From: Nymphaea colorata
Taxonomy: Eukaryota
Length of the DNA: 64,000 bases
Direction of reading: 5' to 3'
Assembly: GCF_008831285.2 (NCBI RefSeq)
Contig: NC_045138.2
Span: 4,092,001 to 4,156,000 of the forward strand
Shown here piece after piece: positions 3,745 through 51,798 of the stretch; the stretch's first letter is position 1, and every line of letters starts with the position of its first letter. The translations under genes and the position numbers were made by a program. Under the pieces are notes generated by a model, which was not told where the DNA came from, did no database searches, and worked only from the letters and a program-made list of their open reading frames with translations.

Positions 3745-4259
3745 GTAGCTACTAGTTTGGTCATACCCAACATCGAAATAAATTTGAATACAAGATGGTA
3801 AATTGTTTTTACATAATGAAATCAGATAAACGAACGACTAACAAGAAACCTGACGAGAATAAAAAAAAAGGGAGCTCAAAGAGATGTAATAAAAAAAAGG
3901 GAGCTCAAAGAGATGTAGAAGGTTTGGGTTGGGAGATTCTTTCCACCAGATTTAATAATGAGCAGTATATAAATCAACTAATTAAATTTCTTATTTAGCA
4001 CACAACTTAATAAAAAAATGTATGATTGAACATTTTTCTCATGTGCTTCAGTATTATAAACATGTTTCATTAGATTGAAGAGAAAAACAGGTCACACCAT
4101 TACCAGGGGAAAATTCATGTGAACGGCAGAAACATGAAGGACGAGAGAGCCGTCTATGGAACTGACAAAAGAGCGTGGAAACCGAGAGAGCCGTCTATGG
4201 CATCTACTCTCTGCCCATATTATGGAGCTAATTGTCAATGGTAATTGTGGCAGGGTGGT

Positions 4260-4271
4260 CTTTATATATTG
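4260..4271 (+). promoter_or_regulatory. Candidate TATA box of NLR copy 1 (counterpart at ~10547-10557 in copy 2)
   Basis: CTTTATATATT lies ~90 bp upstream of the ATG, followed by a CT-rich 5'UTR-like tract; the position is conserved in both copies. Confidence 0.45.
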
Positions 4272-4351
4272 CACTTTGTCTTTCTTCCCTCCCCCACCTG
4301 AAAATTGCTTCTCCTCCTCTTGCTCTTCCATCGACAGAGAAACCGGGGAAG

Positions 4352-5348
4352 ATGGCAATAGCAATTGACGCACTTGCGGCAACAGCTATTTCGAATCTGC
4401 AAACGGCTGTAACCAGTTTGTTGAAATACGAGGCGGACCTCATCTTGGATGCCAAAGACGATCTCAGCAGAGCAAGCTGAAACACCTGCAGAAGACCAAC
4501 GACGATCTCAGGCAGCTCCAAAGCAAGCTGAAACACCTGCAGAAGACCCTCAAAGACGCAGATCACAAGCCCTTTTCCAGCGACGAGCATGAGAGAAATG
4601 TGTCGGGAGAGCTGGAGGACGTTATTTATGATGCCCAGGACATCATGGAAGAATATCGAACCATAATTGAGCTCACCAAAAGGGAGAACTTTGTAATTGC
4701 TTTTTGGAACAAGGTAAAAGAACCCTGGATCACTCTATGCTCTTGCTTTAATGAACATGCATATGCTAATCCCTACCAACTTGGAACTAATATTAAAAAG
4801 ATCAATGAAAGGCTTGAAGAAATAGCGAAAGATAGTAAAATGGCAGGTTTGCCCAACACAGCACCAAAAGAGAGTTGTGAAGAGGGTCCTCTTGGTAGTG
4901 GTAGTGAACATGACAAAATTGAAGAGACAAACCATCACATTGGTACTGCACAACCACGCATAGGCAGAGCCGAGGATAAGAAGAAAGTAAAAGAACTCTT
5001 GTTTGACGTCTCTACAGAAAGTAGTGTGCCAGTGTGGTCCACAAAGTAGGGTACTTGTTGCGTGCAAAAAGTATGACAAGCGATGACTGGGAAACGGTTG
5101 AGAATAGTGAGATCTGGCAATGGGCAATGTCAGCCCCATCTTCCATTGATACCATTCTTTGACAGAGAAGAACATTTGTGATTTCCCCAATCTGAAGTTT
5201 CTGGTGGACGTCAATAATGTTACTCCCCAACAAAATAACGTACCAGCCACACGTCCCAACGGATGCAAAGGAACAGATTGCCTGCCTCTCGAAGCTTGAT
5301 CAATCGTTGATAATTTACAGATGTCACGCACTTGATCTGCTGCAATGA
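4352..5348 (+). pseudogene. CC-NB-ARC (Rx-type CNL) resistance-gene pseudogene, copy 1
   Basis: ATG 4352 (MAIAIDALAATAISNL). An imperfect 44-bp internal duplication (4457-4500) causes a frameshift and stop. The frame from 4501 gives the Rx-CC EDVID-like motif ELEDVIYDAQDIMEEY and pre-P-loop IGRAEDKKKVKELL. The P-loop to GLPL region is deleted relative to copy 2; homology resumes at the ARC1-like DDWETVENSEIWQW, followed by an LRR-like remnant. Confidence 0.9.
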
Positions 5349-8185
5349 TAGGAGATGATTAGTGTTTTTTTATATCATGCTGCTGAAAATTTTCTATTCA
5401 TTTTAAATTGTCTGTAGTGTGTGTGGATTTAAAGTCAGTGACAAAATTGTAACTAATCTTTTTGTTAAATATGCAATTTTTGCATTTTATCGGCTCTTGA
5501 TTTTCTCTCTCTCCCTTGTTTGATTTGGAACTTGCGAGATTTTTATGTCATGTTTTCCATCTACAAAAGTAGAGAAAATGTGTAAGAATCAATAGATTGC
5601 AACTATCTTCAGCAAACGTGATAGAAGCAGGAGAGTGTGTTGCCGTTTGACAGGATTTAGTTATCTTAGTGTAGTTTGTAGCCATCTGGCTTAGCTTGGA
5701 AGCAGTGATTAATTTCTCAGCAGGTCATAACTTTCTCTTTCACCCACCACACATTTGGCCTATATATTAATTCTTGGCAGATCCAACCACTGTTTTACTT
5801 TCCATCCATATATATATATATGTGTGTGTGTGTGTAAAAGATCAAATCTGCTCAATCCCATCCATATTTAAAAATGTAAGGTAGCTAGCAAAGATGATCA
5901 CCTCCTATTGTATTCTTGAGCCCTCCATCTAAGGCTAATTTTGATAAACATTGCTCTTTATGAAGGCACTGCAATGATATTCCCTCGTGTGTGGTTCACC
6001 AGCACCTTAGTCTCCCTCGTGAACAATGTTTTATTTACGTCACACTCTTTCAAAGTAAGAGAATTATCTGAAGTACTACCAGTACTTACTCTTCATTTAA
6101 TTAAGCCCAACATCCAGATATGTTTGAATTTTGGAAAAAAGAGGATTGCACCAAATCTTATGATGTTAAATGAAGTGTTTGTCTCAAATAAACGAAAGTT
6201 AAAGTTTTTATACCCAAAAAATATTTGCAAAAAGTATCAATTATGTACATATCGGTACCTACCGGCACCATATATAAATGATACATGCGGTGCTGTTTGG
6301 ATCAAATAGATGGACACAATACTAAAAATTACCTTTTTCCTTTTACTTTAAGGAAATTTTAAACAACAATTTTAAATATTATTTTGTTTTATATACACCA
6401 AGAATATAACCCCACGTTTGGTACATGATCCTTTAGGCAATGTTCAAAGTTTTGTTCGCACTGATTCTTTATCTCTTTTCTCTCTTTCTCTCTCTCTTTC
6501 TCTCTTTCTATCTCCCTCTCGCCCTTGGCAGTTGGCCAAGGGTTTCATTCTCGATTGCTATATGAGGTTTTCGTTTTCATGGCAAACCCTCCGCCGGTTG
6601 CCGATTGCTATACATGCGGTGCTGTTTGGATCAAATAGATGGCCAATGTCGTTTGCCTGAATGGGTACCAACACTAAAAACACAACAATTTTAAATATTA
6701 TTTTGTTTTATATACACCCGTTGATGCATGCCGGCCCCACGTTTCCCATTACTTATAAAACACATACACACTCTTTCAGAATTGCATGCCGGCCCCATGT
6801 ACAAAGTTTTGTTTTTTCATATCTTATGATATTCACAAAGTTAAAAACACACACACTCTTTCAGAATTACGCACATATATATCTTTATATTCGCCGTCGG
6901 GTTTCACTAAAACACATACACACCCTTCCAATCTATTATTCCAAAAAAATTACAAATACAAAGAACTAACAAAATGTTCACTTACAAAGCTGGTTATATG
7001 GGTGATACTGGTGCACAAAATTTTTTTACACAACGACAAAAATACCTCTCATTCACATTAAAAAAACAAGTTTTTTTGTAGAATACAAATCAAAATCAAA
7101 ACTAATGAAATGACTATAAAAAAACACATGTTTTTTAATTACAAAAACTCTTTCTTTTTTGTTACTGTGTATCGCACGAAAAGCGACGCACGCAACTCTT
7201 TCTTTTTTTCCTCCCTCTCCTCTGCTATGCAAGACCGGCAGTGGCGTCCCCTCTCGCACTGAGTCTTGATCTCTTCTCTCTCCCGCTCTCTCTCTCTCTC
7301 TCTCTCTCTCGCCCATGGCAGTTGGCCAAGGGTTTCATTCTCGATTGCTATACGAGGGTTTCGTTTTCATGGCAAACCCTCCGCCGGTGGCCGAGGGCTT
7401 CTTTTTCATGGAAAACACCTTTAATCTGCGGTGGAAGTTCACGGAACTAAAATCTCTTAATGGTGAATGAGAGGGTTTTTGCACACAGACAGGTCCTCCA
7501 TGCTTCGGATGGGCTCTCAGATACTTTCGATCAGATTAAAGGCTTCTATTGCTGGTAGTCCTAACTGAAACATCGAATAAACAAGTTCATTGTACATTTT
7601 CTTTTTCCGATTATTTCTTTCTTTCATCTCTTGTAAAGTTTCATCAAGGATGCTTAGAATGTGATATTTTTAGGCACAGTATATTTTTAGTAAAGGTTTT
7701 TCATACTTTTAGGGACGGTTTTAAACATTGTTAAAGGGAGATTTTGTTAATAAAAGGTTTTAATAGAATGTTGTAGAAATGCTACTCCAGCTGAACAGCT
7801 TAGGGAGAAGAATGAAGTATTTGCTCCTAAATTAAACACAAGATGTCAAATATTTGTAAAGTCCCCAGTGATTCTGATCAACAAAGTAGTGTATTTGGGA
7901 ATTAAAAATTTATAATTCACACTACAACAAAATACAGACCTAAGGTCGTTCGAAGCTGATTATATACAGCACATCCATGTATGTAAATTTCATAAAAAAC
8001 CATGATTAATACAACCAGAAACTTTATGTAAGGATAAGAACGGGAACCACAAAAGGAATATTTGAGGATTCGATAAAGATAAAATTTGTCAGTCTATATA
8101 TACATATCGTTATAACCAATGTATCCTTTTAAATAGTAAAAAATATTTTCATTTTTTTGCCCCGCTTATAGCATTGTGTCTTGAT

Positions 8186-9896: not shown

Positions 9897-10636
9897 ATAT
9901 ATATATATATACATATAATTTCTTAATGTAACTTGTTTTAGACTGACTTGAATGGTGGTAGACTTGTACGATGTGGCAAAAAAACATGTGAATTTACATT
10001 TTAAAATGTACTTAATTTTTAATTCAATCAACGATACATTTCAGCAACTGATTTATGATAAAAAAAACATGTGTATTTTTGTTTTAACATGTAATTTCTT
10101 GAGGCAAAACGCTTGCCGGTGATTTTAGAGATGTAGAAGGCTTGGGTTGGGGGATTTTCCATTTAGCATCAAGTAAATTAACTAATTTAATTTTTTCTTT
10201 AGCACAACTTAATAAAAAAACGTATCATTGAGTATTAATTTTTTTCATGTGCTCCAATATTATAAACAAGTTTCACCAGATTGGAGAGGAAACCAGGTCA
10301 CATCACTACTGGTGGAAAAATTCATGTGAATGACAGAAATATGGAGGGAAAAGGAAGCAGCAATCTGAATGTAACTAGTTTAGAGGAGAGAAAGAGCCGT
10401 CCATGGAACTAACGAAAGAGCGTGGAAGCCAAGGGCTGGACGTCTTTTTACATTATTGTCTAAATTAAAGGGAGTGAGAGAGCTGCTTTATCTACTCTCT
10501 ACCTACATGATGGAGCTAATAGTCAACGGTAATTGTGGCAGCGTTTTCTTTATATTTAGTACCTTGCCTTTCTTCCCCGCCACTTGAAAATTTCTTCTGT
10601 TCCCTTGCTCTTCCATCTACTTACAAATCCGGGAAG

Positions 10637-12101
10637 ATGGCAATCGCAATCGACGCGCTCTCAGAAACAGCTCTTTCTAATCTGTTGGGGGCTGTAAGCA
10701 GATTGTTAGAAGACAAGTTGGGCCTCATCTGGAGTGCCAAGGACGATCTAAAGCAGCTCGAGTGCAAGCTGGAGCACTTGCAGAAGGCCCTCAAAGATGC
10801 AGATCACAAGCGGTTTTTCAGCAAGGAGCACGACATAGATCTGGAGAGAGAGTTGAAGGACGTTTTTTATGATGCCCAGATTACCATCGAAGAATACCTA
10901 ACCACAATTGTGCTTAGCAAAAAGGGGAACATCTATTCTCTTGCTTTATGGAACAAGGTAAGAAGACTCTTGATCACTTTATGCTCTTGCTTTGAAGAAC
11001 ATCTATCTGCTTTTGACCAATTTGGAACTGAAATTAAAAAGATCAACCAAAGGCTTGACGAAATCGAAGAAGCTAGTAAAATGGTGGATTTACTCAACAC
11101 AGCACCAAAATATACTAGTGGTGAAGCTCTTATTTGTGGTGAACATGACAATCCTCGAGAGATATCCTATCACGTTGGTACTGCACAACCACCCATTGGC
11201 AGGGCACACGATAAGGAGAAACTAAAAGAACTCTTGTTTGATGGCTCTATAGGAAAACATGGTGTCTCTATTGTATCCATTATAGGTCAAGGCAGCATTG
11301 GGAAAACTACTCTTACAAAAATGGTCTTTAATGAAGTTGAGGAACAGTTTGGGAAACGCAGTGGTGGGTTTGTGTTTCAGAGAAGGTAAACCGTATGAGT
11401 TTGTTGCAAAAGATACTAAAAGAAATATGCAACGGATCGGAAAGAAAACTTGAGGGCATCACTTCCTTTAGTGACTTGTGCATACGACTACAAAGCGAGC
11501 TCGCAAAGAGCAAGTTTTTGTTGGTCTTAGATGACGTATGGGAATTAGATTGGTGGATGGGAGCGGTAGAGGATGTCCTGATGGGGGGTGCAAATGAGAG
11601 CAAGATTTTAATCACCAGTGGAAACATAGAAGTCTCCCAATGGATTGGTGTATAAATTACCCGAAATGACTCTCGATGAAAGTTGGAGATTGTTTCTGAA
11701 TGTGGCAATGAAAGAAGAAAATGAATTGGCAAGTCACAATTTGAAAGATATTGGGGAGAGGATGGTGAGCAAGTGTGGTGGGATTCCACTTGTTGTCAAG
11801 AAAGTAGGGTGCTTAATGCGTACAAAAAAGATGACTAGAGATCACTGGGAAGCCGTTGAGAATAGTGATATCTGGAAATGGGCGATGCGTGCCCCATCTT
11901 CCACTGGTAGCTTTCTTTGACAGACATGGCTTCCCCAATCTAAAGTCTACCAAGTCCCTGGTAGACGTCAATATTACTCCCCAACAAAAAGATGCAGTAG
12001 CAACATGTCCCACGGATGCAAAGGAACAGATTGCCTGCCTCTCGAAGCTTGATCAGTCGTTGATAATTTGCAGAAGTCATGTACCCGATCTGCCGCAATG
12101 A
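10637..12101 (+). pseudogene. CC-NB-ARC (Rx-type CNL) resistance-gene pseudogene, copy 2
   Basis: ATG 10637. Motifs seen: ELKDVFYDAQITIEEY, P-loop GQGSIGKTTLT, RNBS-A WWVCVS (after a frameshift at ~11360), kinase-2 KFLLVLDDVW, RNBS-B SKILITSGN, second frameshift at ~11650, RNBS-C ESWRLF, GLPL-like CGGIPLVV, stop at 11918-11920. No RNBS-D or MHD. LRR-like remnant (GFPNLKS...LSKLDQSLIICRSHVPDLP) to 12101. Confidence 0.93.
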
Positions 12102-12549
12102 TAGGAGATGACTAGTGTTGCTATATCATGCTATGCTATTGAACTTTTTCTTTTTATTTCAAATTGTCTGAAATGTGTGTGGTTTTAAGATCAGTGAAGA
12201 TTGCAAGTAATATTTTGGTTGAATATGCAATTTTTGCATTTCAGCGGCTCTTTTCTCTCTCTCCCTTGTTTGACTTGGGTGATGCAACTTTTTTAGATCA
12301 TGTTTTCCATCTCTAACAGTGGGGAGAATGTGTAAGAATCAATAGAGTGAAACTGTTTCCGCAAACCTGACTGAAGCAGGAGAGCATACTGCCGTTTGAC
12401 AGGGATCAGTCAGCTTGGGTGTGTTTTGTAACTATCTGGCTTAGCTTGGAAATAGTGATTAATTAATTTTTTGATCAGGTCATAATTTTCACTTTCACCC
12501 ACCACACATTTGGGTTATTAATTCTTATCGCATCCAACCACCATTTTAA

Positions 12550-12617
<68 letters not shown>

Positions 12618-13569
12618 AAAAATAAGGATCCAAATTTGTTCGATCCATATTTAAACCAGTAAGGTAGCTAACACATATGATCACCTCCTATTGTATTGCT
12701 GAGCCCTTCACCTAAGGCAAATTTTGGTAAAAAATTCTTTGTAAGAAGGCCAACAATGGTATTATGTCATGCATGATTCACCTGCCTCCCTCTCATGAAC
12801 AATTTTGTATCTACGCCGACACATGCACCTTTTCAAATATTGTACTAAGCAAGGGGATCTCAAGTATGTACCGGTACTTAATCTTCATTTGACTATACCC
12901 AACATCCAGTTACAATTGAATTTAGGAAAAAACAATATTTCACTAAATCTTATGATGTTAATTAAGTGTTTCTCTCAAATAAACGAAAGCTAAAGTTTTT
13001 AAACGAAACAAAAAAGAAAAAAGTTATGTATTACGTGAACATCAGTACGTACCGGCACCATATATAAATGATACATATGTGGTGCTGTTTGGATAAAAAG
13101 GATGGCAATGTCCATTGGCCTGAATCGGTACCAACATTAAAAGTTGCCTTTTCCATTTAAGAAAATGTAAAAAGTAATTTTAAATATTATTTTGTTCTAT
13201 ATACACCAATTGACGCATGCAGGTCCCGATTAATTGGCTCATACAATAAAAGCTATGTTGGCCAACTTATAAAGGTATAGATTCTTTGAGCGACGCTCAA
13301 AGCTTCATGTTTTTCATATTTAATGATATTCACAAATTTCGAACGCAAACAGTCAGAAAGTTGCGCTTATATTCTTATATTCACCTTCAAAGATTTGTCA
13401 TGTTAGCCATATGGCGGGATCTCTCATTCTTCTTTTCCATATAAACACTGCCAGCGGCTCCTGTTTCCAGTAGCAGCTGCACCAAATAGCTCCCCATATT
13501 TGTGCCAATGAACCTCAAGCAATGTCTCTCCCCACTTACGCAAAACTCGCCCATTGCCAAAAATAACAA

Positions 13570-15454: not shown

Positions 15455-15522
<68 letters not shown>

Positions 15523-15927
15523 CAGTCCAACCCAACCAAAAAATAAGGTACCCAACCCTGTCACGGGCCGACTTTTTCAAGCCTTATTTGGCCCGCGCGG
15601 CGCCGAAGGTTTCCCCAATCCTTCGGCCAGCCTGACTCAATCTCAGTATAGCGAAAGCTTTCATCTATCTTTTGGGATTGTGGCCTAGACGAGAAGTGTT
15701 ATGCACACACCATTACCCAGGTTTATCACATAGTAGACCATCAGCAAGCCGTGGTCATGAGGCCCTGTTAGAACATCGCAATTCCTCCAAGTGCCTATAT
15801 ACGTCCATACAAAATCTAGGTAGAAGTAGATTTCCTTTGGGAGGAAATCTCCAGCCGAAGCTAGTTGACGACTATATATCATTCAGCAAGGCAGCCGACC
15901 ATCGCCCTACTCGACGACAAGTATTCA

Positions 15928-18420
15928 AGGGGCGTTTGTCACGCTGGAAATCTATTGTTCACCCAAAAAAAAATTTCCAAATTTTTAAAATTTTTCCAGC
16001 GTAACAAACGCGGAAAAAAATTTTCGACCGTTGGGTCGATTCCAGAAATATTTTTCCGGAAACATATTTCCACCCGGACGGGTAGAAATATATTTCAGGA
16101 AATTTTTTACGGCCCGTTGGGGCACGCTTCTTCCTTCCTGCTGCCGTGAGTTCCTCATGCACCGCAGCCGCCTCTTTGTCGTCGTCATCTCCCTCCCACA
16201 TTCAGATTCCTGCACCTTGATCTTCTCCGTCGATTCAGTCTACGCAGGTACCAGTCCCCTTCCCTTCACTCTCTTTCTCTCTCCCTCTCTCTCTCCCCTT
16301 TTCAACCCTTGCCGCCGGCCTTCTTACTCCAGCCAGACAGTCGCTTGTAGCGTCGACCCAGGCCGCCTTCCGTCTCTCCCTTGCTTTTGGTTTGGGTCAA
16401 CTTCTGGTTTAATTAACGTCTTTATGGTACGTATTCTTCAGCATGGCTAACTACGCCTGTTCCATGTCTTTCTTTTACGGAACAAAATAATTATGTTGTC
16501 TTCAGCATTTTCAGATTTATAACGGGGCTAAAACAGGACACGCTTAATCACGCACCCTTGGTCTCCCTTTTTCTTGAGTAAACACATGTTTATGTTTACA
16601 TGAACAAAATTTCATATTAGGGATTTATGACATTGCATTGTCCTTAGTTGATGCCGATTCAGTTACAAGGTCTAGCATGATTCACAGCTAAGTGTATTAG
16701 GGAGGATTCATACTAATTAATATAATAAATTGAGTTTTTAGGTCATTTTTCTTTGTTGATCTGTTTTTTCTTTGATGTTAGCTTTAATCATGGTCAAAGA
16801 TTTATAATGGGGTTTTCCTATGCCTTTTCAAAAGAAAAAAGGTTAAATTGGTTACTTCTGTTTATGAAATGATCTGCTAGATTTTTCTTATGAAAAATGT
16901 TTTCGTTAGTGGCTTTGTGGAGAGGCTCATGGTATCTGTTCTTGTTATGTTCCTTTAATGTTATTGATGCAAATGGATGGATTGCTGTTCCTTGAACCTC
17001 TGACAATGTATGCTGACTGGACTCTTTACTGGTGGATTAAGGACTTGTTGGCAAGGTTGATTTTACTCATTCCCTTCAAGTTGGACCGATTTTACCAAAT
17101 ATCAACCATGCATTGGGGCTGTTCTACTGTTGTACTTTATCATTGTGTCTTAAGAAAGCATTAGGATGTCCCTTTGAGATTCAATTGGGTCAGTAGTCAG
17201 ATACTCAAGTTTTTCTATTTAAACACATTCTTCTAAAGTCATCCCCTATTGGTTATATGTTTATTTTTTCAGTGTGCTGCCTATTCTTTTGAATATGATA
17301 TATTCATGCAGTTTCTTGATACGTTTTATCTGATGGTATTGTTAATTTGGTTTAGATATGTTTATTTTGTGTTGACATATGAAATGCTTATGTTGCATTA
17401 CAATCCTTACAGTACTCGTTCAATATGTAGTGGAATGATGTCCAAGAAACAAACTCCTTATCTCACATATACACGTATACAAGAGAATGATATTCAAAGC
17501 TGTAAAGTAAAGCTCCAAGAGCAAGGAGTCAAGAATGTCTTACTACTACAAAATGAGAGAAATTTTTACAGTTAATATTAATGATATAAACTGTCTTTTA
17601 AATAACATTGTTGAAGTTAAATGTCATGTAGCACGACAAGAATGATATTTACAGAACCAGTGGATAAGAAGGCTTTTGTGGTTTATCTAGTGTATGTATG
17701 TGGTTTATCTAGTGTTGCATGTGGTTTTATCCTCCTGCTTTATTGCTCATTTTTGTTATGTGTGTTGCTTCGTTGAAGACTTTTGTTGTGAGCGCAGCTG
17801 TGATTATAGTTGGGTTTGTTTTGTATCCTAGCATGGAATATGTGAAGAATAACAAGTGGCTGATGTTTTATTCCACGGTTTTACCTACAAGCCAAGTTCA
17901 TGAAGCTGCTCCTGCAGTCTGTGAAGGCAAGGAAGTAATAGATGAAGCATCAGTGTGCTTTCTCTCTGAACCATCTTATGCTAAGAAGGAAGTACATAAT
18001 GAAGATAGCAGTATGGAAGGAGTCTTAACGTTTGACTAAAGCTTTCTCGAGCATAAACTATGCCATTGTCCAAATGATATATTTCATTCTGTTGAAATTG
18101 TAAATTTTTCTGTGTTGAGTTATGGGCTTTCCATAGAGGGAGAGAGAGCGAGAATAGTGATTTAAGAAACTCTATCTATAGATTATGTAAATCTGCAAAT
18201 ATGTTTCCTTATTATCAAACTAAGAAATAATTTTCTGGAAATCTAGAAATATATTTCTTTTTCATCAAACAGAGAAATAAATTTCAGGAAATTTATTTCT
18301 CAGTCATCACACATACATCAAAATGAGAGTTGGAAAGATTTTTCTCATCCCTCTTTTCCAAGAAATTTATTTCGAAAAATATTTTTCCAATTCCAGGTTT
18401 CCAACCCGTCAAACAGCCCC
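15928..18420. mobile_element. PIF/Harbinger-like non-autonomous element carrying host gene fragments (Pack-type)
   Basis: TIRs AGGGGCGTTTGTCACGCTGGAAATC and (revcomp) GGGGCTGTTTGACGGGTTGGAAACC; 3-bp TSD TCA (15925-15927, 18421-18423); GAAATATATTTCAGGAAA-type subterminal repeats at both ends; no transposase. Confidence 0.85.
17719..18039 (+). pseudogene. Captured 3' fragment of a polyamine uptake transporter (PUT/LAT family, At3g19553-like)
   Basis: PPALLLIFVMCVASLKTFVVSAAVIIVGFVLYPSMEYVKNNKWLMF...DEASVCFLS resembles the last two TM helices and the tail of plant PUT transporters as recalled. The rest of the gene is absent. Confidence 0.75.
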
Positions 18421-20289
18421 TCACTTACTCGCCTCCGTGTGACTCTACTCGGTTGTGGACGCAGCATATGTGTCTACCGAGGGAATTGCCCTTACGCACG
18501 TGCACCCCCGTGCGCATCCAAACGCTACGCGTGGGGAACCCAACTGATTCACCACTGATGGACTTGTAATTCCAAAGGGACTGATGACCATGATGCATTT
18601 ATATGCTTCGTCGCTGCACCACCGCGCTACACATCCACGTGCATTGCTTTCTACTTAACTTAGCATCCGATTGGATCCCACATGCTTTCCGAGCAATGCC
18701 TAAACTGGCCAAGCAGCATCTCCTTCTACTGGCATGGCCGGCCATACACAGTCAGTCCACAACATTCTTCCACCACCAAATCGTCAATATCCTTACTGAC
18801 TATGCCCTGGGCAAGAGAAATTCTACAGCCATCCCCTTCATTTCCTTTCAACTGAGCCTACATCTGTCTGATTGACGCACCCGTCACGTCGCAGCTACCA
18901 GCCTTATCGGGTGTTTTTCCTCTAGTCAATCCTCAATTTCTTTAAACTTTTCTGTCATTGTTCGCACTTTTCTTTAGTAAAGTCTGGAACATCTCCGAAG
19001 ACCACTAAGTCTCAAATTTCCAAAATGTGTTGCCAACTTGTACTTTACATGCTCCTTTCCTCAAGTCATGTTAACACCAAGGGCCACTGCCCTCCTGAAC
19101 AATCTTTTTTCATGTCGGACCCCTCTTTTTTCATGTCGGACCCCTCACCCTATTTGCCTCAGCGAGCGGCTCTCTTGGCCTTTCTGCTCTTGACACCCAG
19201 ATACCATCTTCGGAGCGTATGATCTCCATCTGGCCAACACTAATGTGGTCACTTGAACTCATTTTCGACGAACATGCTCAAAACGTAGGGCACCAATAAC
19301 AAGCCAATGTTTTTTCAGAACCACTTGTTGATTGTCTTCGCAGCTTTCTCATTTTTCAAGTTCTTTCCGAGAAATTGTCTGCTCTGATACCACTTATCAC
19401 GGGCCGACTTTTTCAAGCATTATTTGGCCCCCGTGACGCCGAAGGTTTCCCCAATCCTTCGGCCAGCCTGACTCAATCTCAATATAGCAAAAGCTTTCAT
19501 CTATTTTTCGGGACTCTGGACTAGACGAGGAGTGCTATGCATTCGACACACAATCATCCAGGTTTATTCCATAGTAGACCATCAGCAAGCCATGGGCATG
19601 AGACCCTGTCAGAACATTGTCATTCCTCCAAGTGTCTATCTATGTGACCATGAGGCCCCGCGTGACTCTACGCATTTGTAGACGAAGCATATGCGTCCAC
19701 CGAGGGAATTGCCCTTAACCCATCGCACCCCTTGCGCATCCAAACGCTACGCGTGGGGAACCCAACTGATTTCCCATTGACAGACTTACACTTCCAAAGG
19801 GACTAATGACCATGATGCATTTATATGCTTCATCGTTGCACCACCGCGCTGCATATTCACATGAATTGCTTTCTGCTTGACTTAGCGTCTGATTGGATCT
19901 CACATGCTTTCCGAGCAATGCCTAAACTGGCCAAGTAGCATCTCCTTCTACTGGCTTGGGCAGGCCATACACAGTTGGTCCGCAACAAACCCAATGCCAT
20001 GTCTTAATTGTTGCATTCCATATCTATTTCAGATCCTTTCCAAGTCCTATACCAATAAACTTCTTATCATATGCCTCCACCAACCTCTCCTCTCCCCCCA
20101 CCCTCCCAAATACATTTACTTTATGGGGCCCTCAAATTAATTTTTTGGATTTTATGTTTAACAAAATTACCAAACTAGCCTTCAGGCGCCTCTTTTACAA
20201 AAAAAAAGCCCTCCAGCTAACCACTTCCCATAAAAAAATAAAAAAGAAAGAAAGCCACCATTGGCTCATGGCTGGGGGTGCTACGAGAA

Positions 20290-22979: not shown

Positions 22980-30450
<7,471 letters not shown>

Positions 30451-32444
30451 TCAAATTTAAGTCAATTTGCTGAGCATCTAACCAGTGGAATCTCTCTCTC
30501 TTTGTAAACTGAAACGTGTCATATCAGCTTTTATTGATCTGTTGAGAGGACCATCAGATCTGACTCGGTAGAGAATAGTAAAGCAACAGATGCAGTTCGA
30601 TTTTTTCTTCCTTTTAACTTTTGTACACATAGTAGACAATGAAAAGAAAGACTTAAATAAAAAAGAAATTCAAGCAGGAATTGCATTCTGCAGTAGCTAA
30701 GGAGGCAAAAGTTGCAGAGATGGGCTCAACGACAGCACATTGCTTTATCAATGTGAGCAGCAACCAACTTGATGAATACTGGATTTTATTTTCCAAAAAA
30801 GCTAAAACTATAAACCAGAAAAACAGCTTTATAAAATTTCGTATGGTATTTTATTGACATATAAACAAACACATTTAGATCTTATTCCTTTGTATGATGC
30901 GCTAATCGTGGACCGGTAAATTTTGTTGTGGAAAGGGACAACAAAGAGCAAAAGAGGGAGATAAAATAGTGAGAAAGAAGAAATGGAAATGAAAAACAGA
31001 GAGAGAGGGAGAGAGAGAGAGAGTCAAGAACATTCGCCAGCCTTTTCCAGTTCTAACTATAAAAAAGTCACATAACTGATTAGTTTAGATGGCCAAATTT
31101 GAAGATCAATCAATAATTATCTGGTATAACTTTAATTAGGTGTACTTATCTTGGTCAAGAAAATGATTGCTAATTGATGGACAGCCATATGATATTGTTA
31201 CAATATAAGTAGAGAACGCAATGGGAATGTGGTTCAATCACATGAACAAACTAACAATAATGTGTAATAAGGTTTGTTACGCTTAAAGAAATGTTTGCTA
31301 TTAGACTCTTAAGCAGGAGAGCGCTTTCTCCAAAAAAATTGTGGAACCAGCTAACTGAACGTAGGAATGAAGATGATGCACATCAGACTTCACGGGATGC
31401 TGACTTCTATATTCTTTGTGCCAAGCTTAGGACATGCAGTTCATGGACGCCTTGAAGATCATGAAGAGAAAGACATTATGAAGGGAAATTCAAAAAAGAG
31501 GGCAGACATGTTGATAACCACCTATTTACACATGTTCAATGGGTAGACTATTGGTTATGTAAGTTATACTGCAAGGTTTGGTGGTGTTGAAACTGACATC
31601 TTGGATGTGCATAGTCATTCATGCATATCTATTGACATCTTGGCCTTGAATTTTCCATTTATATGAGATGTGATGCCTGTGGCTCATAGTGCAGAACTTG
31701 TTTGGCTACCTGGCATTCAACAGTATATTCATAACATAAAGAACTTCAAAATTAATGTGGGGGAATGAGGAGAAGGACTTGTTTTCAGCTACACATAGAA
31801 AGTGAAATTTTACCCTCTATTATTGTCTTGGGAGTTAAACCTTGCTGTGACATGTCAACATGAAAAGGGGAAAAAATTGAGGGGTGTCATGTCAACATGA
31901 GAAGTGCTTCGCTAAGAGTAACATGGCAGCCATGTGTAAAAACAAGGTGCAGGGCCTCGCCATCCAGCCAAAACTTCTTGGTGGTTGGGGCCCCTGAGGC
32001 AATATTTCTTTAGTGAAGAAATCTCATTCCTCATGGGTGGACTCCTTTTTTGTCACTCAAGTGTCTCCGTTTTTGCTCTCTCTATCTCTCTGTCTCTCTC
32101 TCTCTCATACAAACTTCTGTCTCTCTCACATACACATATGCATGTGTGCATGCATATTCACACATACTGAGTAAAGAAGAAAAAATTGAACTCGGAAATG
32201 TCAGATGGAAGTTTGAAGTTTGATGAAATGGATAGAAAGTACTGCAGTTGCTGCTTCAGGCCATGCATTTGTTAAGCTGCGCAAACTTGCTCCATAGATT
32301 GCACTTACAGAAAAAAGATGAAAATTGGGCCATGTTCCAGAAATAAAAGGAGGCTATGTCACCCAATCAGTTGAAGTTACCATATGGAATGAAGACACAC
32401 ACACATATATATATATATATATCACAAGAACAAGGAAAGTGGAA

Positions 32445-32765: not shown

Positions 32766-33078
32766 CTGAACTGCATATATAGATCATCGAGTAGCATGTG
32801 TAAATATGTATACGAGACTTTCTATTCAGCAACAACATAATTGCATAAAGTACAACTAGCTTGACTAAGAAGCAGCGGACAAAAGCACATTTTGGATGCA
32901 CTTTGGTGGAAAAGAAAATGCCTTTGCCAATGTATAAAGCATACATTTTTTTATCAATAATTGAAGATTTCAACAACAGTGACTATCCTAACCTTAATCT
33001 AACATAAATGGTAAAAGAATAAGCACCATAAAATTTTATATATTCACGACCTCAATCTACTATTGTTATGTAAACAAT

Positions 33079-33930
33079 GTGGTCATGAAATCCATAGTGG
33101 ATAATTGTTGGTTTAGGTTCATTCTTAGGCTTGGTTCTCCTAATTGGGTGTCAGTTTCAAGAACGACAGTTAAGAGAGATGTCATGAAATTATATGAAGA
33201 TGAAAAGAAGAAATTGCTTCTTGTCTTCAAGGGTGTTGAGAAGATTGCTTTGACTACAGATATGTGGACATCAAACCAACAACTTGGATATATGGCATTA
33301 ACAGCACATTTCATTGATAAAGATTGGAAGATGCAACATCGTATCATCAACTTTACCGAAGTTGAGCCACCTCATACTGGGGTAGTTTTAGCAAATGTAA
33401 TTGCTAAGCATCTTGCAGGAGTGGGAGATTAAAAAGAAAATAATATCTATTACAGTTGACAACGCTTCATCAAATGATGTTCTTGTCAGAAAATTAAAAG
33501 AAAACATGGAAAAGAGCGGCATCAACTTGTATCATGGAGGTAAATTTTTTTCATGTGCGATGTTGTGCACATATTTTGAATATAATGGTACAAGATGGGT
33601 TGAGTGCCATTAAAGATGAAATCATTAGCATTAGAGAGGCAATTAAATATATCAAAGTGTCACCTTCAAGACTTCATGGTTTTGCAGCTGCAGCTACAGA
33701 GTTGGATCTTTCAACGTCAAAGAAGTTAGTGCTAGATGTACCAACTAGATGGAATTCAACATATTTTATGTTGGAAAGAGCTCTTGTATATAAAGATGCT
33801 TTTGCAAGATATAGCATGGAAGACCCAGGTTTGGTATGGTTGCTTGGACCCGAGGATTGGGAAAAAATTGCAGTGATATGTATTTCTTTCAGGTTGAGGA
33901 CGAATCAAGTGAATATATATCATTAGAATG
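33079..33930 (+). pseudogene. hAT (Ac/RICESLEEPER-like) transposase fragment with two frameshifts
   Basis: Motifs SRTTVKRD, ALTTDMWTS, YMALTAHFID, ITVDNASSND, HVRCCAHILN and DVPTRWNSTYFML spread over ORFs 33079, 33401 and 33534. The BED finger and C-terminal dimerisation domain are missing. Confidence 0.95.
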
Positions 33931-40303: not shown

Positions 40304-40336
<33 letters not shown>

Positions 40337-40337
40337 T

Positions 40338-40937
<600 letters not shown>

Positions 40938-41557: not shown

Positions 41558-44031
41558 TTAACACATAGAAGAGGTAGCAGCAAGGCCCATAGGAGTCGAC
41601 AGGATGTAGACGCCTCCTTTCTCATAGCCGCCACCAATCGTCTTCCTAGTTTGCAAGTCCTGAAATGAGCATGAATCAGGGTCAAAAATAATATGACAGT
41701 GTAAATCAGTAGTCAACTGTTTAACCGAGAGTAAATGAGATGGAAATTTAGGAGCATATAAAACATGTGGAATAGTCATAGACTTTGAGAGTTTCACATC
41801 TCCAGAACCCAATATGGGTGACAGTCTACCATCTGCAATTTTTACATGACGTGGCTGGGGAAATTTATGCAGAGTAGTAAAAGACTCGTGTCTGCTGCAA
41901 AAATGTCTTGATGCTCCTGAATCAATAATCCACGAAGTACCTGAGTCAAACATGGAAGGACCCGCTGAGAAGGCTCGATCAGTCACCGCTGTAGCAGCTG
42001 AAGCCTGTGAGGCTTTGTGTGCCAAAATTTGCTCATACTCAACTCTGTGAATGCTAACTGTCTCTGGAGCTATACTAGGCGAAGAGTCCTCCACTGTAGG
42101 AGTGGCAGTCTGTGCAGAACCCATAGACGAGTAAGTAGAGCTCTTGCCCTGTTTGGTGACCATATTTCTTCCTTGTGACAAGGAGGATGGGCGACCATGT
42201 TTATCCCAACAGCGATCCTCTAAATGACCAATCTTACCACAATAGGTGCATTGGAACCTCCCACGGCCCCCAGTTCCACGACCTATACCTCTTCCTCTTG
42301 TACTATAGGTGGAGCCATGACCACGACCACCCCCCACAGCAAGTGCAGAGGCAGGCGTCACACCAGCTGGTTGAGACAGACTAATAGCAAGACGGCTAAG
42401 TCTGTTGTACGCATCAGAGAGGTCAGGAATTTCACTTCCAGTGAGCATCTGATCCTTAGCAGCAGCATATTCAGGAGAGAGACCAGCAAGAAACTTTGCA
42501 ACCATAGTAGGTTCAAAGTGTGACTTATAACACGATTTGCACGGAGGACGCAAGAATTTCAAACGTTCATAAGTGGCTTTAACTGTGGCAAAGTATTGAG
42601 ATAAATCCTGACTTTTCTGTCGGAGATTGTGCAATTCTTCTTCAACTTGAAGGATTTTACTCACATTCTTATCTTGAGAATATGTCTGTCTAAGAAATTC
42701 TCACATCTCCTTCGCAATAGTATAGTACGTAATAGTAGAAGCAATTTGAGGTTGAACACTATTCATAATCCACGACATTACCATGTTGTCGTCCTCTTCC
42801 CAGGTTATGTACTTCCCTAACTTGTTAGTAGGCTCATCCTCTTCAATTATGTGTCTCTTTCGATGACCTTTAACAGACAACATAAAGGATCTGGACCACA
42901 GTTCATAGTTGTGTCCATCTAATTTAACTGTAGATCCATAAGAGAAGGGATTTCCACCTCCTTTGTGATCGTTACCACCCTCGGAATTTCGGCTCTCAGC
43001 CATAATAAATCACAGCAAGGATAAGAATACCAAGATAAACTGTATATAAGCAGCAACTTCACGAGGACAACAGGAATAACACGAAACGAAGGAACATGCA
43101 CACGTTTCTTTCACATCCCCAAACAGCAAATAAAAGTAGCCTGCTGAAACCACACCAGAAACGGACAGAGAATAACTTGCTGAAAATAGTGACTTGCTGA
43201 AAATAGCCTGCTGAAAAACACACCAGAAAATAACAACTTGCTGGAAATAGCTTGCTGAAAAACACGCCAGACAAGAACAGGGAATACAGCCTGCTGAAAA
43301 ACACGCCAGAAAATAACTTGCTGAAAAAAAACCTTACAAACAAGGTCTGCCGCTGCTTCTACCATTCCCAACCTCAACTCTTAAACAGCACGTCCATATC
43401 TTTCGTAAAAAAAAATCAGCAAAACATGTTCTGCGTCACCAAAACTTCTGATCATACCTTACACCGCAGCCACTAACAGCATAACGTTCCACTCAAATAC
43501 TCTCAACAGCGTCCATCAACAGCCCATAACCTTGTCCACGCACTCCACTAGAGGATCTGATCACGCCTTCCACATAGGCGAGATCAGGTCCTCTTCCACG
43601 CAAGAAGAAAAATAGGGGAAACCAGCGATCACGCCAGCAACAACTTGAGATGCTCACGTACAAGAAGTCTGAGACGATTGGTTCATGCCAGCAGACTTGA
43701 AGGTTCACGCCAGCAGACTGAATCAATACCGCAACAAGGAAGGCACGAGAGGAGCACGCCAGCAAACTTGAGTCGATCACACCAGCGTAGGCTCTGATAC
43801 CATGTTACGTGATGAAGAAGGGGAGAACGAGAGAGGGAGAGAGAGAGAGAGAGAGAGACGAAAAAGATATATTGATCTCGTGCTCTAATCTCAACTTAAA
43901 GGGAGATTAGGGCACGGCTGAGGCAGTTACAAGAGAAGGACAAATAAAATATTAAAAGGACAGAAAGGAACCCTAACTCTTAAATAGTCAAATAACTACC
44001 ACATTTAAAAACAAACTTTCTAATTTCAACA
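41558..44031 (-). mobile_element. Ty1/Copia element A, 3'-truncated: 5' LTR 43803-44031, PBS, gag-protease
   Basis: PBS-Met at 43791-43802; LTR TGTTAC...TTCAACA. ORF from ATG 43003 with one in-frame TGA (42701-42703); zinc knuckle CTYCGKIGHLEDRC; protease WIIDSGASRH. Tandem repeats in the leader at 43120-43330. Confidence 0.93.
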
Positions 44032-46745
44032 AATAGCTCGGGTGACATCTAATAAATGGCGATTTTTATGTTCGGCCACGTCATTTTGGGGAGGAGTATA
44101 ACTACAGGACGTCTCATGAACAACACCCTTGCCCCGCAGGAAGTCATCCAGAGATTGGGAGACATACTCCCTGGCATTATCAGTACGGAGTGTCTAAACA
44201 GAGGTCTGAAATTGATTTTCGACAAAGGCAACAAAATTTTTGACAACGACAGGAACCTCACTGCGTTCTTTCAACAAATACACGAACGTACAATGGGAGT
44301 AGTCATCAATCAGAGTCATAAAGTAATGGAAACCACGACAAGTGGGTACTCCCGAAGCACCCCAAACATTAGAGTGAACCAAAGCAAAAGGACGAGTGGT
44401 TTTATTGAGAAAAATAGGGTACGAAGCCCTAACATACTTAGCAAACTGACACACTTCATATGTGAAGGAGTCCATGGAAACAGAAGTAAACAACCTAGGA
44501 AACAACTTCTTAATCAACTGGAATGGGAGATGTCCAAGACGCTCATGCCATCTCATAATGCTAGACCTGTCCTCCACGCCCGTCGACTGTCTGCTAGTGG
44601 CTGAGATGAGAGCAGAGGCAACCTGTACGGGGCAGTCTGTAGAGGCCATCAATAACCGAACCAATCCCAATCTTCCTCCCCGTCACCAAGTCCTGCAGGG
44701 TACAATGATCAGCAGAGAAAATTAGATTACAATTGAGTTCTTTGGTGATACTACTGACAGATAACAAATTCACAAGAATATTGGGAACATGAAGAGCATT
44801 ATGCAAAAGATATTTATTTAATAAGGACAAACTTCCTTTTCCAGCCACAGAGATCGAGGACCCATCAGCCATAGATACGCGTTGCTGCCCTGAAGACAAT
44901 TTGTACTCTTGAAACATCTTAGGGTTCCCTGTCATATGATGAGTAGCTCCACTGTCAACTACCCAATCACCAAGTAAGGGATTACCTTGATCACTTGTGG
45001 CAACAAGAGCTTGGGCTAACTGAGCTCCCTCAAACGTGGAGGCATCCTCCTTAGTAGTAGATAACCGGCTGATGTAAGCTTGTAATTCTTTGATTTGGTC
45101 AGAGGAAAGCTTCGGTTTTTCAACACTGGGAGAGCTAGTATCAGCCATAGGAGGACCCCGCCTACCAGAGGGAGGACGACCATGGGTGAGCCTCTTCTCA
45201 GGATGAAGATCCCAACAAAAATCAACTGAGTGTCCCAACTTGTTACAATGACTGCAACACTGAATGGGACGCTACCCAGTCCCTGGAGCACGGCCAACAA
45301 AAGCAGAGGGTGAACTACCATGACTGTAGTCAATATGCATCACGTGACGGCGTTGTTCCTCAGATTCCACCCGGGCATACACCTCCTCAATTCCAGGGGT
45401 CTCGTCACAGTTGAGAATTTGACTCCTAATGGATTCAAACTCATCACGCAGACCTCCCAGAAAAATAAAAGTGCGGTCCATCCATTCTTTCTGCCAGTAC
45501 AGTTCATGATCAGAACCACAATGCCAATCATCATTCACATGATAATCCAGTTCCTCCCATTTAGTCTTCAGGGCTGCATAGAAGGATGCCACAGACAAGT
45601 CACCATGTTTAAGAGAATAGATGTTGTGTTTAATCTGGTATGTACGCAGGACTCTCTTTTTACGACCATACATCTTCGCAAGCACAGTCCACATGTCATA
45701 TGAGGTCAACTTTCGCAAAATAAGGGGCTGAATATCAGCAGAAACAGAACTAATAATCCAAACCTTAACTTGACTATCTTCCAACGCCCAAGTCGCCCAT
45801 CCAGGATCAGTTTTACTAGGCGCAGGTTTCTCCCTCGTGATATAGGGCAGACGATCGCGACTAGTGATCCCAATTTCCAGCGCAGCAGACCAAAAGAGAT
45901 AATTGTCTTTGTTCAGCCGAATAGAGGTGACTTGAACAGACAAGTTTTCGCTCTTGGTATTGCTGCCCGTATCAAAGTTAACATCGGTCTTGGAGGTCAT
46001 CTCTTCAGCCATAACAACCACAAAAGAAATCCAACAGTCAGAGAATACCAAAAAAAAAACGCAGGAGGAGGACCCGGGCACTATGGCACTTTGCCTACAA
46101 TGGAGGACGGGCAGCAGCAGAGTAGCGGGATTCCCGGCAAGCAGTCACAGGGCGTGGAACAGGCCAGGCGACTGCGGGCGGCGTCGAACAGCGAGTGGCG
46201 TTGGCGCAGCGGTGTCAGACCGGCGGACGGCAGCGGCGCACGCCAGGCAACAGCGGACGGCGGGCTGCGTCAGCAGCGGGACGTAGGGCGACGTCAGCGG
46301 CGGTGGGACGGCGGTCTACGTCGGTGGCGGTGGGACAGCGGGCTGCGTCGGCGGCGGGGCTAAGAACTCCAGCAAGATCAGACTTAGGGTTCAAAAAAAA
46401 AACTCTAAATCACACACGAACGAAGAAGCCAAACAGCACGATTTTGGCTATGATACCATGTAGAAACACGCAGCGGAAGAAGAGAAAGGTAAACAAACAC
46501 AAGATTTACGTGGAAAACCTCGGGATTAGGTGAAAAACCACGGGGAAGCTCTAACCTAGGGGCAAAACCGCAACCCTAGGAGAGAGAAAACTTAATTCAC
46601 TTAATCAACAATAACAATAAGTCATTAGAATAAAAGATGGAGGAAGAGAGACCCGCCTAGGGAACCGAGCCCGTCCTCGGTTCCCGCACCCATGGGTACC
46701 GGGTCCATATCCGGACCCGGTTCCCTATTACACGGTATTCTAACA
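44032..46745 (-). mobile_element. Ty1/Copia element B: 5' LTR 46459-46745, PBS, gag, protease, 5' part of integrase
   Basis: PBS variant GCTATGATACCA at 46447-46458; LTR TGTAGA...TCTAACA; gag ATG 46012; CSHCNKLGHSVDFC; WVVDSGATHH; WHERLGH; integrase cut at AEHKNRHLLDVTRA by element A. Confidence 0.93.
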
Positions 46746-48540: not shown

Positions 48541-50208
48541 CTATCCAGCTTCCTTCATCAGATAAGTCAATAAGTGTAGCATTTCATAGATCTCTTCAAT
48601 CTGATAATGAGTCTTGTCTTCTGGTGCAAAGTAGTGTCTTCTGTTTCTTATCTCAATCCAACTAAGTGCCGGTTGCTTTTTCATTCCCCTCTCCTTTATA
48701 AGGACTCGTAGCTGACTAACATGCTTCCATCTTCTAGCACCAGCATAGACGTTTGATAGACTCACATACCTCGCAACATTTGTAGGCTCCAAACTGAAAA
48801 GGGACTCAGCAGCTTCACTAGCAAGGTCCGCATTGCCATGGATCAGACAAGAACCAAGCAGTGCACCCCACATGCCCACATCAGGTTGAGAACTGATGCT
48901 TTTAAGCAACTCAACTGCTTCATTTAGACGACCAGACCTCCCAAGTAGATCAATCATGGCTGCGTAATGGTCTGATCTAGGACGTACTCCATAGTGTGTC
49001 TCCATCAAGATCCAATATTGATGCCCTTCTGATACTAAACCAGCATGGCTGCATGCAGCTAGAACACCAAGAAAGGTAACGTCATTTGGTTTCACACCTG
49101 ATGTGCTCATTCTATCAAAAATTTCCAAGGATTCTCTTGCACAACCGTTCTGTGCAAAACCAGTTATTAATGCATTCCATGAAACAATATCTCTTTCGCA
49201 CATCTGTTTGAAGTGTATTAAGGCTGAGCCTATGCATCCACACTTCGCATACATGTCAATCAAAGCATTTGAGATAAAGGTGTTGGCCTCAGGCATTGTT
49301 CTAATGATGTGTCCATGAAGCTGCTTGCCACATTCAATGAGGCCTAGACTTGAGCATGCACTTAAAACACCAACAAATGTAAATGCTGTAGGAGGAACAA
49401 ACTCTTTTTGCATTTCAGAAAAGAGCTCCAATGCCTTTTCACCTTGATCATTTTGAGAATGCCCAGTGATTAATGCAGTCCATGAGACCTCATTTTTTAC
49501 TGGCATGCGCTCAAATAGCTGGCGTGCCTCTTCTAACTGATTTAACCGAGCGTAGCTAGAGAACATTGAAGTCCATGATATTACATCTCTTTCCTCCATT
49601 CTATCAAAGACTATCATTGAAGTCCTTAAATCTCCGCATTTTCCATAAGCATCAATGAACGAATTTAACATGATCAGGTTCAGCTTAAGCCCCATAACCA
49701 CAACAGCACCATGAATCTGCCTGACCCATTCCAGAACCTTGAATCTGGAACAGACATTTAGTAGGCTAACAAGCGTGAACTTATCAATCCACATTTTTTC
49801 TTTCTGGAAGCTGCGGAAAATACCAATGGCGCCTTCCCAATTTCCACATCGAGCAAACCCGGATATCATTGAATTCCATGTGACTACATTCCTCTCAGGC
49901 ATTTGGTTAAAAAGCCCTTGTGCATCGACTAGCAGCCCATTTCTTGCATACCCACCAATGATAGTGTTCCATGTATATGCATTTCTCTCAGGCATTTCGT
50001 CAAACAGTCGGCGGGATGATGAAATTGAGTTGCATTTTGCGTAGACTTCGACCAACCGGTTAGCCAAGAAAACATTCAAATCAAGCGCAGTCTTAATAAG
50101 AGCAGCATGGACTGATCTGCCCAGTTTGAGATTGGTCTCTTTGATGCATCTATCCAGCAAGTATGTGTACAGCGAGCCACAACCTTTCTCACTAGCATGA
50201 GACTGCAT
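48541..50208 (-). CDS. PLS-class PPR protein with E/E+ domain, no DYW (probable organellar RNA-editing factor)
   Basis: Intronless ORF (first ATG 50208) with repeated ERNVVTWNSMISG/DVISWTSM/DIVSWNALITG motifs and E domain WGALLGSCLIHGN...YVSLSNVYA...GMKKQPALSWIEI. Confidence 0.93.
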   Translation of the reverse strand: MQSHASEKGCGSLYTYLLDRCIKETNLKLGRSVHAALIKTALDLNVFLANRLVEVYAKCNSISSSRRLFDEMPERNAYTWNTIIGGYARNGLLVDAQGLFNQMPERNVVTWNSMISGFARCGNWEGAIGIFRSFQKEKMWIDKFTLVSLLNVCSRFKVLEWVRQIHGAVVVMGLKLNLIMLNSFIDAYGKCGDLRTSMIVFDRMEERDVISWTSMFSSYARLNQLEEARQLFERMPVKNEVSWTALITGHSQNDQGEKALELFSEMQKEFVPPTAFTFVGVLSACSSLGLIECGKQLHGHIIRTMPEANTFISNALIDMYAKCGCIGSALIHFKQMCERDIVSWNALITGFAQNGCARESLEIFDRMSTSGVKPNDVTFLGVLAACSHAGLVSEGHQYWILMETHYGVRPRSDHYAAMIDLLGRSGRLNEAVELLKSISSQPDVGMWGALLGSCLIHGNADLASEAAESLFSLEPTNVARYVSLSNVYAGARRWKHVSQLRVLIKERGMKKQPALSWIEIRNRRHYFAPEDKTHYQIEEIYEMLHLLTYLMKEAG

Positions 50209-51798
50209 TCCTCCTCCCAATGCAAGCTAAGGAGGAGGCAGAAAACTAAATTAGAGAGGTAGAATAAAATGGAACTAATAATAATTTTACATATCGATCT
50301 AACAAAGGTACGTCTCTAGGAAAGAAACCTTTAGATAGTTATTCCAAAGCATACCTTATCAAACATCTTATATGTGCTTGGTGTCCTGAAAACCATTTCT
50401 AATCAATTCATTGCTGGCAGTATCAAACATGTCGTGGTTAACTTTGCTCTTTGAGTCCTTACTTCTTAACTATTCCACAATTCGTAGTTCTAACACGAGG
50501 AGCCATGTTAAGGGGCTGAAGATATGACCTATTCAACAATAAATCAGCTACTTTGTGACATGTGACAAACTCTGTTGTGTATACACACTTGCACTCTTAC
50601 CAAACAATCTTTTATGCTTGCGTTGATTTATTTTTTCCTTGATCTTTTATGTATAGTTGTATGCTTCATAATTCTTTTGTTTTTTGTTTCACGTCAAATA
50701 TTTTTCTTTCTAGGTCTAAAGGGTGCCCCATGTTCTTTGTTTAACACGCCCCCTCGTGTTTTACTTTTTTAGATGAAGCGACATTTTTGGTATTCAAACA
50801 ATGGGCATTTCCATCATTTTATGTGAAAAGTGACTTTTGTTTTTTATTTTGGGTTTCCAAAAAGTAGATTTCACTTTCTATTTTTGGTGACGACGTCAAT
50901 GAATCCAATAACTCAATTTGGATTAGAAATCCAATCGAACCATTCCAAATAAATTAATATCTAATTAAGAAATTGAATCATTTTCGGATATAAAAAACAG
51001 CACTTGATTGGAGTAGGATTCAAATCGATTTACTTTTAAATAAATATTCTATATTGAACACTCTTACATTTTCAAAAATGGTCCAGATTTGGTTCAAAAT
51101 TCGGATTCAGATGTGAGTTTTAAGATTTGATTTGTGAATCTGGATTTCATAAATTTCTTCCCTTATATTTGAACTTTAATTTAAATATATGTAAATATCC
51201 AAATGAAACAGATACAGTCAAGAGTATATCTGATTCAAATCTAATCTATTTACATCTCTAATTTGTAAACAAACTGCCCACTATTAGGGCCTAAGGATCC
51301 AGCTTAGCTCATAGAGTTGGCCAGTTGGGCTTAAGAGATGTTAGCTGCCTTTGACCAAAGCACACAAACGGATCATTAGAATCTCGTCCCCGAATATGCA
51401 CAGATATTAAGGACGTCCAAGAGACGACACCTTTGTAAACCATATCATCGAACACTTTGGTTACCTACTTGGGCCTAAGGCCCGCCATCGGGTTGGTTAC
51501 AGGTATCAAACCCGAAACGGGCCAGGCTGGGACCACAAAATCGCCGTCGGCTTCTTCGGGCTGGGTACTAGCAGCCTCATAACCTATATAATTCTAAGAA
51601 TATAATGGCAAAATTTGCATTAACCATTAAGTGATGGCTGTGATAAAACAGTTTAACGACGAAAAACCGGAGGAAGTGTTCAAGTAAAGAATCTCAATGA
51701 TCAATAAAAAAAGTTTCCCACTGGGCTTTACTATCAAACTGCAAAACTAGCTTTTGGAAAGAGGAGCTCATCTGCTCATTCAGAAAAACTCAAAACAT

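Follow-up and report, generated by a model that had tools for sequence, protein, structure and literature searches.

A probable Pack-PIF element nested in a retroelement LTR of Nymphaea colorata carries a 3'-terminal fragment of a PUT5/LAT5-like transporter gene that was likely captured by template-switch repair and is likely decaying

Pack-PIFs have been annotated in maize and rice (PMC8903248), and transduplicating Pifvine-3 elements have been described in grapevine (PMC2528002), in the portions of both reports on which we draw here. The original prediction for the locus described below had called gene capture less well documented for PIF/Harbinger elements; these two reports, in those same portions, document it better than was claimed. 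In the part of the maize and rice survey considered, Zm-Pack-PIF cluster 18 has terminal inverted repeats (TIRs), a 3-bp target-site duplication (TSD) and no transposase, has cargo-free relatives that share its ends, and carries 163 bp at 97% identity to a host gene in an element of ~0.5 kb. As presented in the sections of the grapevine report used here, Pifvine-3 was found via transposase homology, holds host exon and intron DNA together with a long 5' region that is neither ORF1 nor transposase, and has some cargo that is multicopy. Finally, single-copy Pack-TIRs attributed to gap filling have been described in animals (PMC8277862, a report whose main text does not contain the words PIF or Harbinger). 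One of these, Ssk-FB4, is reported to combine a 2-base microhomology at one junction with a 45-base filler, made de novo, at the opposite one.

The element that we describe here lies in a 64-kb window of Nymphaea colorata DNA, by which we mean the whole stretch that was analysed. Like cluster 18, it has TIRs, a 3-bp TSD, no transposase and cargo-free relatives with the same ends, and its 379 bp of host DNA are ~95% identical to their source. Unlike cluster 18, it is 2.5 kb long, occupies a TCA target and resides in an early-diverging angiosperm, and there is no evidence that it has been amplified with its cargo. It resembles Pifvine-3 in combining host exon DNA and intron-like DNA with a long 5' region, and differs from it in that a transposase is absent and a donor for the 5' region was not found. 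Internal breakpoints, and the pairing of a short microhomology at one junction with tens of bases of filler at the other, are shared with the animal cases, though the host in our case is a plant. This is ordinary gene capture of a kind already described in maize, rice and grapevine; a thin literature search returned no published description of PIF/Harbinger gene capture in water lilies (Nymphaea).

Our main reading, to which we assign a probability of roughly 85%, is that a Pack-PIF inserted in the LTR of an older retroelement contains a 3' end of a PUT5/LAT5-like gene, which was likely acquired by template-switch repair and is likely decaying. The sister copies and the donor were seen through contigs of 8 of 21 public sequencing runs (X-numbers below), in which contig depth is not a measure of copy number. 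The features are collected in Table 1.

Table 1. Features of the element, its cargo and the retroelement that hosts it (window positions)
Feature	Position	Strand	Remarks
Host LTR element	15559-19987	-	TSD AACCC (5 bases) on both sides
Interrupted 3' LTR	15559-18764		purine tract beside it
5' LTR	19395-19987		primer-binding site 19382-19393 beside it
Element	15928-18420		~2.5 kb; flanked by TCA on both sides; without transposase
Left target-site copy TCA	15925-15927	+	empty-site contigs of X1, X2 and X3 continue with CTT
Left TIR, imperfect	15928-15953	+	junction bridged by zero-mismatch contigs (X1, X2)
Left subterminal region	15954-16140	+	12-base near-palindromic motif three times (16045, 16059, 16085); common to diverged contigs
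GC-rich exon-like block	16141-16247	+	56% GC; ends GCAG/GTACC, GT donor-like
Intron-like T-rich DNA	16248-17412	+	common to diverged copies elsewhere
Exon-like block after CAG	17413-17575	+	46-codon ORF
Junction filler	17677-17729	+	two exact 17-base repeats and a degenerate third copy
Captured 3' end of PUT5/LAT5-like gene	17730-18108	+	residues 411-512; stop 18037-18039; 69 bases of 3'UTR
52 bases between PUT piece and family backbone	18109-18160	+	matched in the rest of the window by short GA repeats only
Right subterminal region	18161-18394	+	12-base motif three times; common to many diverged contigs
Right TIR	18395-18420	+	alignments of 12 X3 contigs and 3 X19 contigs reach 18421 and diverge there
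Right target-site copy TCA	18421-18423	+	

The GTTTG core is a hallmark of Tourist elements. Both termini of the element have six bases followed by the predicted GTTTG, and 18 of the 26 terminal bases are identical between the two ends. This pair of ends ranks top among five such pairs in the window, and 18 matches were reached in one of 200 block shuffles, the end pattern and the motif count both having been devised after the sequence had been seen. The predicted TCA duplication is borne out by empty sites. Other copies of the host LTR carry a single TCA, with joints that lead from 15927 to 18438 and from 15927 to 19656, the latter in runs X1, X2 and X3 (X1 and X3 being one sample). Since the empty-site contigs carry a single TCA, insertion of the element with a 3-base duplication is demonstrated. 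The 5' LTR of the host retroelement was also considered as an intact empty site and was ruled out by its internal deletion of ~120 bases, which spans the insertion point. The longest stop-to-stop frame inside the element in a six-frame translation is 153 aa; therefore, the element is without a transposase, as claimed, and the five frames scanned gave no Pfam match under E 0.05. Autonomous PIF/Harbinger partners carry a DDE transposase and a Myb/SANT ORF, neither of which is present here. Rfam returned no match within 15500-20100, and searches of metagenomes with the PUT piece and with a subterminal motif returned no loci.

In the sections of PMC4482050 used here, PIF/Harbinger elements are described as preferring TWA targets and as having TIRs shorter than 60 bp that begin with A or G. 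The imperfect TIR of this element is 26 bases long, its ends start with A and G, and its TCA target is not the canonical TWA. TCA is tolerable as a minority target because TTA and TAA account for only 52% of PIF elements in rice and 81% in maize, in the figures taken from PMC8903248. The CTNAG target (TNA between C and G) of NuwaII, a PHIS element, was considered as well, from the same portion of PMC4482050, and rejected; the TCA at the empty site stands between a T and a C. Other elements that share these ends were found, as many diverged contigs match the right end (~18161-18421) and diverge left of 18155-18186. In all three whole right ends among the 24 loose ends listed of 248, CAAAC is followed by six bases and then by TTA (one end) or TAA (two ends). 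Because the sister ends carry TTA or TAA, and because the absence of a transposase leaves the termini as the sole basis for a superfamily, we classify the element from its termini as a putative non-autonomous, Pack-type PIF/Harbinger element. It has no transposase, an intact host gene exists elsewhere, and its relatives share the termini and differ inside. The Pack-type PIF/Harbinger reading of the original prediction is therefore supported by the termini, the TSD, the sister ends and the PUT donor. Elsewhere in the window, a TTA with a GTTTG-type end occurs at 41379, where the best partner end matches at only 12 of 26 bases, and two tandem elements of ~240 bases with inverted ends, 86% alike, lie within TA repeats at 40318-40832.

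The nesting of the element in one LTR of the retroelement at 15559-19987 had been overlooked in the original prediction. Self-comparison of the window matches 15561-15804 and 18435-18764 to 19397-19645 and 19658-19987 at 86.7% identity, and the K2P distance of the LTR pair is 0.127 over 573 columns. The interior of the retroelement is ~630 bases long and has no long ORF; this short, non-coding element belongs to an apparently abundant family in the DNA runs. The LTRs have diverged by ~6% each since insertion, as compared with ~5% in total between the PUT copy and its donor, mostly on the copy's side, and on this comparison the capture probably took place somewhat later than the insertion of the LTR element.

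Other parts of the window hold further repeats and genes. Copia-type gag/pol remnants (Retrotran_gag_2/3, Pol_BBD), apparently of more than one element, occupy 41558-46144 on the minus strand, and two frames at 32998-33926 resemble what we take to be hAT transposase fragments, with no Pfam match for these frames at E 0.01. About 8 kb at 23000-31000 are of low complexity with a strong G/A skew (GC skew reaching 0.8). At 3909-6401 and 10127-13209 lie two NLR-like genes, duplicated and broken, that share 70-74% DNA identity, with Rx_N matches in both and an NB-ARC match in the second, and an open frame of 561 codons at 48541-50226 (minus strand) encodes a PPR protein with an E motif.

The 106-aa ORF at 17719-18039, which had been proposed to be the C-terminus of a PUT-family polyamine transporter, has a single match among longer proteins (P0002, E 4e-50), namely XP_031495509.1 of Nymphaea colorata, a 512-aa At3g19553-like polyamine transporter of the PUT5/LAT5-like type. 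Between 17731 and 18036, 90 of 102 residues (88%) are identical to residues 411-512 of this protein, so that the proposed assignment holds. The captured piece comprises the last 102 codons, the stop and, as the proposed 3'UTR-like tail, 69 bases of donor 3'UTR. No PUT gene was found elsewhere in the window; an intact donor is present outside it, as evidenced by the full-length protein and by donor contigs, which differ from the piece at 17 of 336 bases (X1, X2).

The donor contigs also define both breakpoints. In three RNA-like runs the donor match starts exactly at 17730, and in X15 the upstream letters code for the donor's preceding residues. At the other side, donor contigs in X19, X1 and X2 stop at 18107-18108 and continue in other sequence, the alignments spanning 17730-18107 in X19 and 17773-18108 in X1 and X2. 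The piece starts mid-codon with no acceptor AG ahead of it, and it ends inside the 3'UTR without poly(A). Because of that start, the cargo is a fragment of an exon rather than a whole one; the "host transporter exon" of the original prediction is thus a real transporter piece but an incomplete exon. A retro-copy origin was considered and rejected, as 18108 is not followed by poly(A) and the copy breaks off within the 3'UTR, where the X19 donor contig extends for 58 letters more. The element's own PUT copy was seen in one of the eight runs, X4, as a 225-base match at 17839-18063 with zero mismatches, the gaps in the other runs being uninformative.

The left junction is built from repeats. The exact 17-base repeats begin at 17677 and 17699, and the degenerate third copy overlaps the donor start by two bases, TC. 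The ATG and first four codons of the ORF come from this filler, and PUT similarity begins only at 17730. The original prediction had placed near-identical repeats at 17677-17714 with the ATG following them. The repeats are indeed present, as exact 17-base copies, but the ATG overlaps the third, degenerate copy rather than following the repeats. The claimed template-switch junction fares better, as the slipped repeat and the TC overlap support a junction of the repair type. In sister elements, the sequence left of 18161 resembles the repeat region (best 3 of 491 element windows), and in the same scan over the whole 64 kb, the score of the junction is equalled or exceeded in 11 of 25,584 windows. 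This resemblance is no more than suggestive of an origin of the repeats in the native family backbone.

The termini of the element and of its sisters, the TSD with its empty site, the host LTR, and the donor with its two breakpoints were all observed, and from them we infer how the element may have formed. An autonomous relative would have supplied the transposase that mobilised it in trans. Inside the element, a break ~260 bases short of the right end would then have been patched with a slipped triplication of the 17-base motif, PUT DNA and 52 bases of other filler, the PUT DNA being joined through the TC overlap with the third repeat copy. The ATG of the ORF would have come into frame by chance.

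Two other origins for this arrangement have to be weighed. A left-end element and a separate small right-end MITE could have lain on either side of PUT DNA at the donor locus and transposed as one unit, with later deletions, a local-hopping model that has been proposed for Pack-PIFs (PMC8903248, in the portion used). The contig depth of the right subterminal region, far above that of the left end and interior, is what an abundant MITE would give. However, no internal TIR remnant matches the end patterns, and both donor breakpoints border filler rather than TIRs, with the slipped repeat at the left one a better fit to repair synthesis, so that we regard local hopping as very improbable. More improbable still, to the point of being hardly credible, is attachment of the PUT piece to the element by an assembly error. 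Such an error would be consistent with the observation that no contig spans 17729/17730 or 18108/18109 among the matches listed, at eight records per run. A mis-join would reproduce the donor unchanged, whereas the piece differs from the donor contigs at the 17 positions noted above and X4 carries the exact diverged version, and the presence of filler on each side of it points to a biological event. Template-switch repair remains our preferred account of the capture.

The interior to the left of the repeats is less readily traced. The GC-rich 5' block with a donor near 16247 that had been noted from the sequence is present, as is the T-rich intron-like DNA (34% GC and 41% T over 16414-17412). 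Diverged contigs in both DNA and RNA-like runs match 16141-17700, one contig of X17 matches 16590-16975 with 33 differences, and the ATG at 16157 reads ACG in related copies. Of the exon-like block predicted at about 17413-17575, the block after CAG and its ORF are there, but it has no credible protein match. As protein, 17408-17572 matched nothing among longer proteins, and its best Atlas score, 0.78, is below the lead threshold of that resource. Two leucine-rich-repeat proteins were rejected as chance matches to this block (34-35% identity over ~36 residues, with scores summed over 3-4 repeats). The block could be what is left of PIF ORF1 or of a second host gene. No credible protein match or donor was found for 16141-17700, which may be either family backbone or an older capture.

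High-depth contigs from RNA-like runs of relatives match the block at 16141-16247. Summed contig depth across 16247 in such runs falls from 48.5 to 0.5, from 8.2 to 0.6 and from 365 to 21, with no such fall in X20 (595 to 356). As contigs cannot show ends, this drop is a weak hint that related loci splice at 16247.

The original prediction had further suggested an apparent chimeric gene, which our data do not support. A working expression unit would consist of a left-end promoter and 5' exon spliced to the TAG at 17710-17712, which would bring the PUT ATG close to the start, and would yield a 106-aa membrane micro-protein or a regulatory RNA. Several observations are in line with this: the PUT frame is intact, a donor-like GT stands at 16248 and the TAG lies six bases ahead of the ATG, and the depth drop in three of four RNA-like runs of relatives hints weakly in the same direction. 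In addition, X4, which is of unknown library type and poor in LTR contigs, has zero-mismatch contigs at 15955-16262 and 17839-18063. On the other hand, the first of these contigs extends 15 bases beyond the donor. The 16157 ATG is out of the PUT frame at every acceptor tried; with the 16247 donor, the only one taken, no YAG acceptor in 16248-17760 joins it in frame to PUT, and when spliced via 17713 its frame, 69 codons long, runs across the PUT start. There are twelve ATGs between 17413 and 17719, and the ORF has a poor start context. The exact 106-aa protein is absent among ~15 billion sequences, and the RNA-like runs examined have donor-type bases at the listed PUT positions. None of the 21 runs is registered as RNA, which counts neither for nor against expression. 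Run X4 itself is rich in transposon-end contigs, has a further zero-mismatch contig at 19833-20227, and could be an open-chromatin, reduced-representation or RNA library.

The substitutions in the copy bear on the same question. Conserved residues have been lost: at the 12 amino acid differences from the donor, 62 other plant PUTs (65 matches minus two algal proteins and P0002) have the donor residue as the more frequent state at nine, are tied at one and have neither state at two. For L422V, L418F and L487F, the donor residue is found in 62/62, 60/62 and 57/62 of these proteins. The probability that the open frame survives 16 random changes is 0.47. The base differences listed (at least 13) comprise 8 replacement changes over 226 sites and 5 silent changes over 66 sites; their ratio of ~0.5 lies below neutral and would favour a working unit. 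Because the differences listed are incomplete and both lineages are pooled, this ratio neither shows nor excludes selection. Taken together, we consider a working expression unit to be unlikely, with a slim chance at best, and judge from the substitution pattern that the PUT copy is likely decaying rather than a working new gene.

The PUT fragment spans the final two hydrophobic segments in the P0002 prediction and lacks the first 410 residues, so that the AA_permease_2 domain (36-416 in P0002) lies nearly all outside it, and no Pfam match was found for the fragment. Arabidopsis PUT5 has 12 predicted membrane segments, in the part of PMC7695346 used. Because the 106-aa product would retain no more than two predicted membrane segments, the final ones, and the tail of a ~12-helix transporter, it is predicted to be unable to transport alone.

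A broader version of the expression idea would make the left end of this PIF family a portable cassette of promoter and first exon, with splicing at 16247 in many members, that transcribes any DNA captured downstream of it. Here, RNA of the PUT5 tail would then give a two-helix micro-protein, or 24-nt siRNAs acting on the PUT5 donor in trans. We think this improbable, with odds as low as those of the working unit itself. A link to siren RNAs was considered and rejected. Nymphaea siren loci are enriched in hAT elements in the portion of the report used here (10.64898/2026.08.14.744852), and this enrichment lends the present element no support.

The decaying Pack-PIF copy that we favour leaves existing knowledge unchanged, and the locus would carry greater weight only if the family's 5' cassette were a reusable promoter or if the copy regulated its donor. 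It is an anatomically clean case, in which the empty site, the donor and both breakpoints can be read, and it offers one more example for repair-type capture. With it, gene capture by PIF/Harbinger elements is extended to an early-diverging flowering plant.
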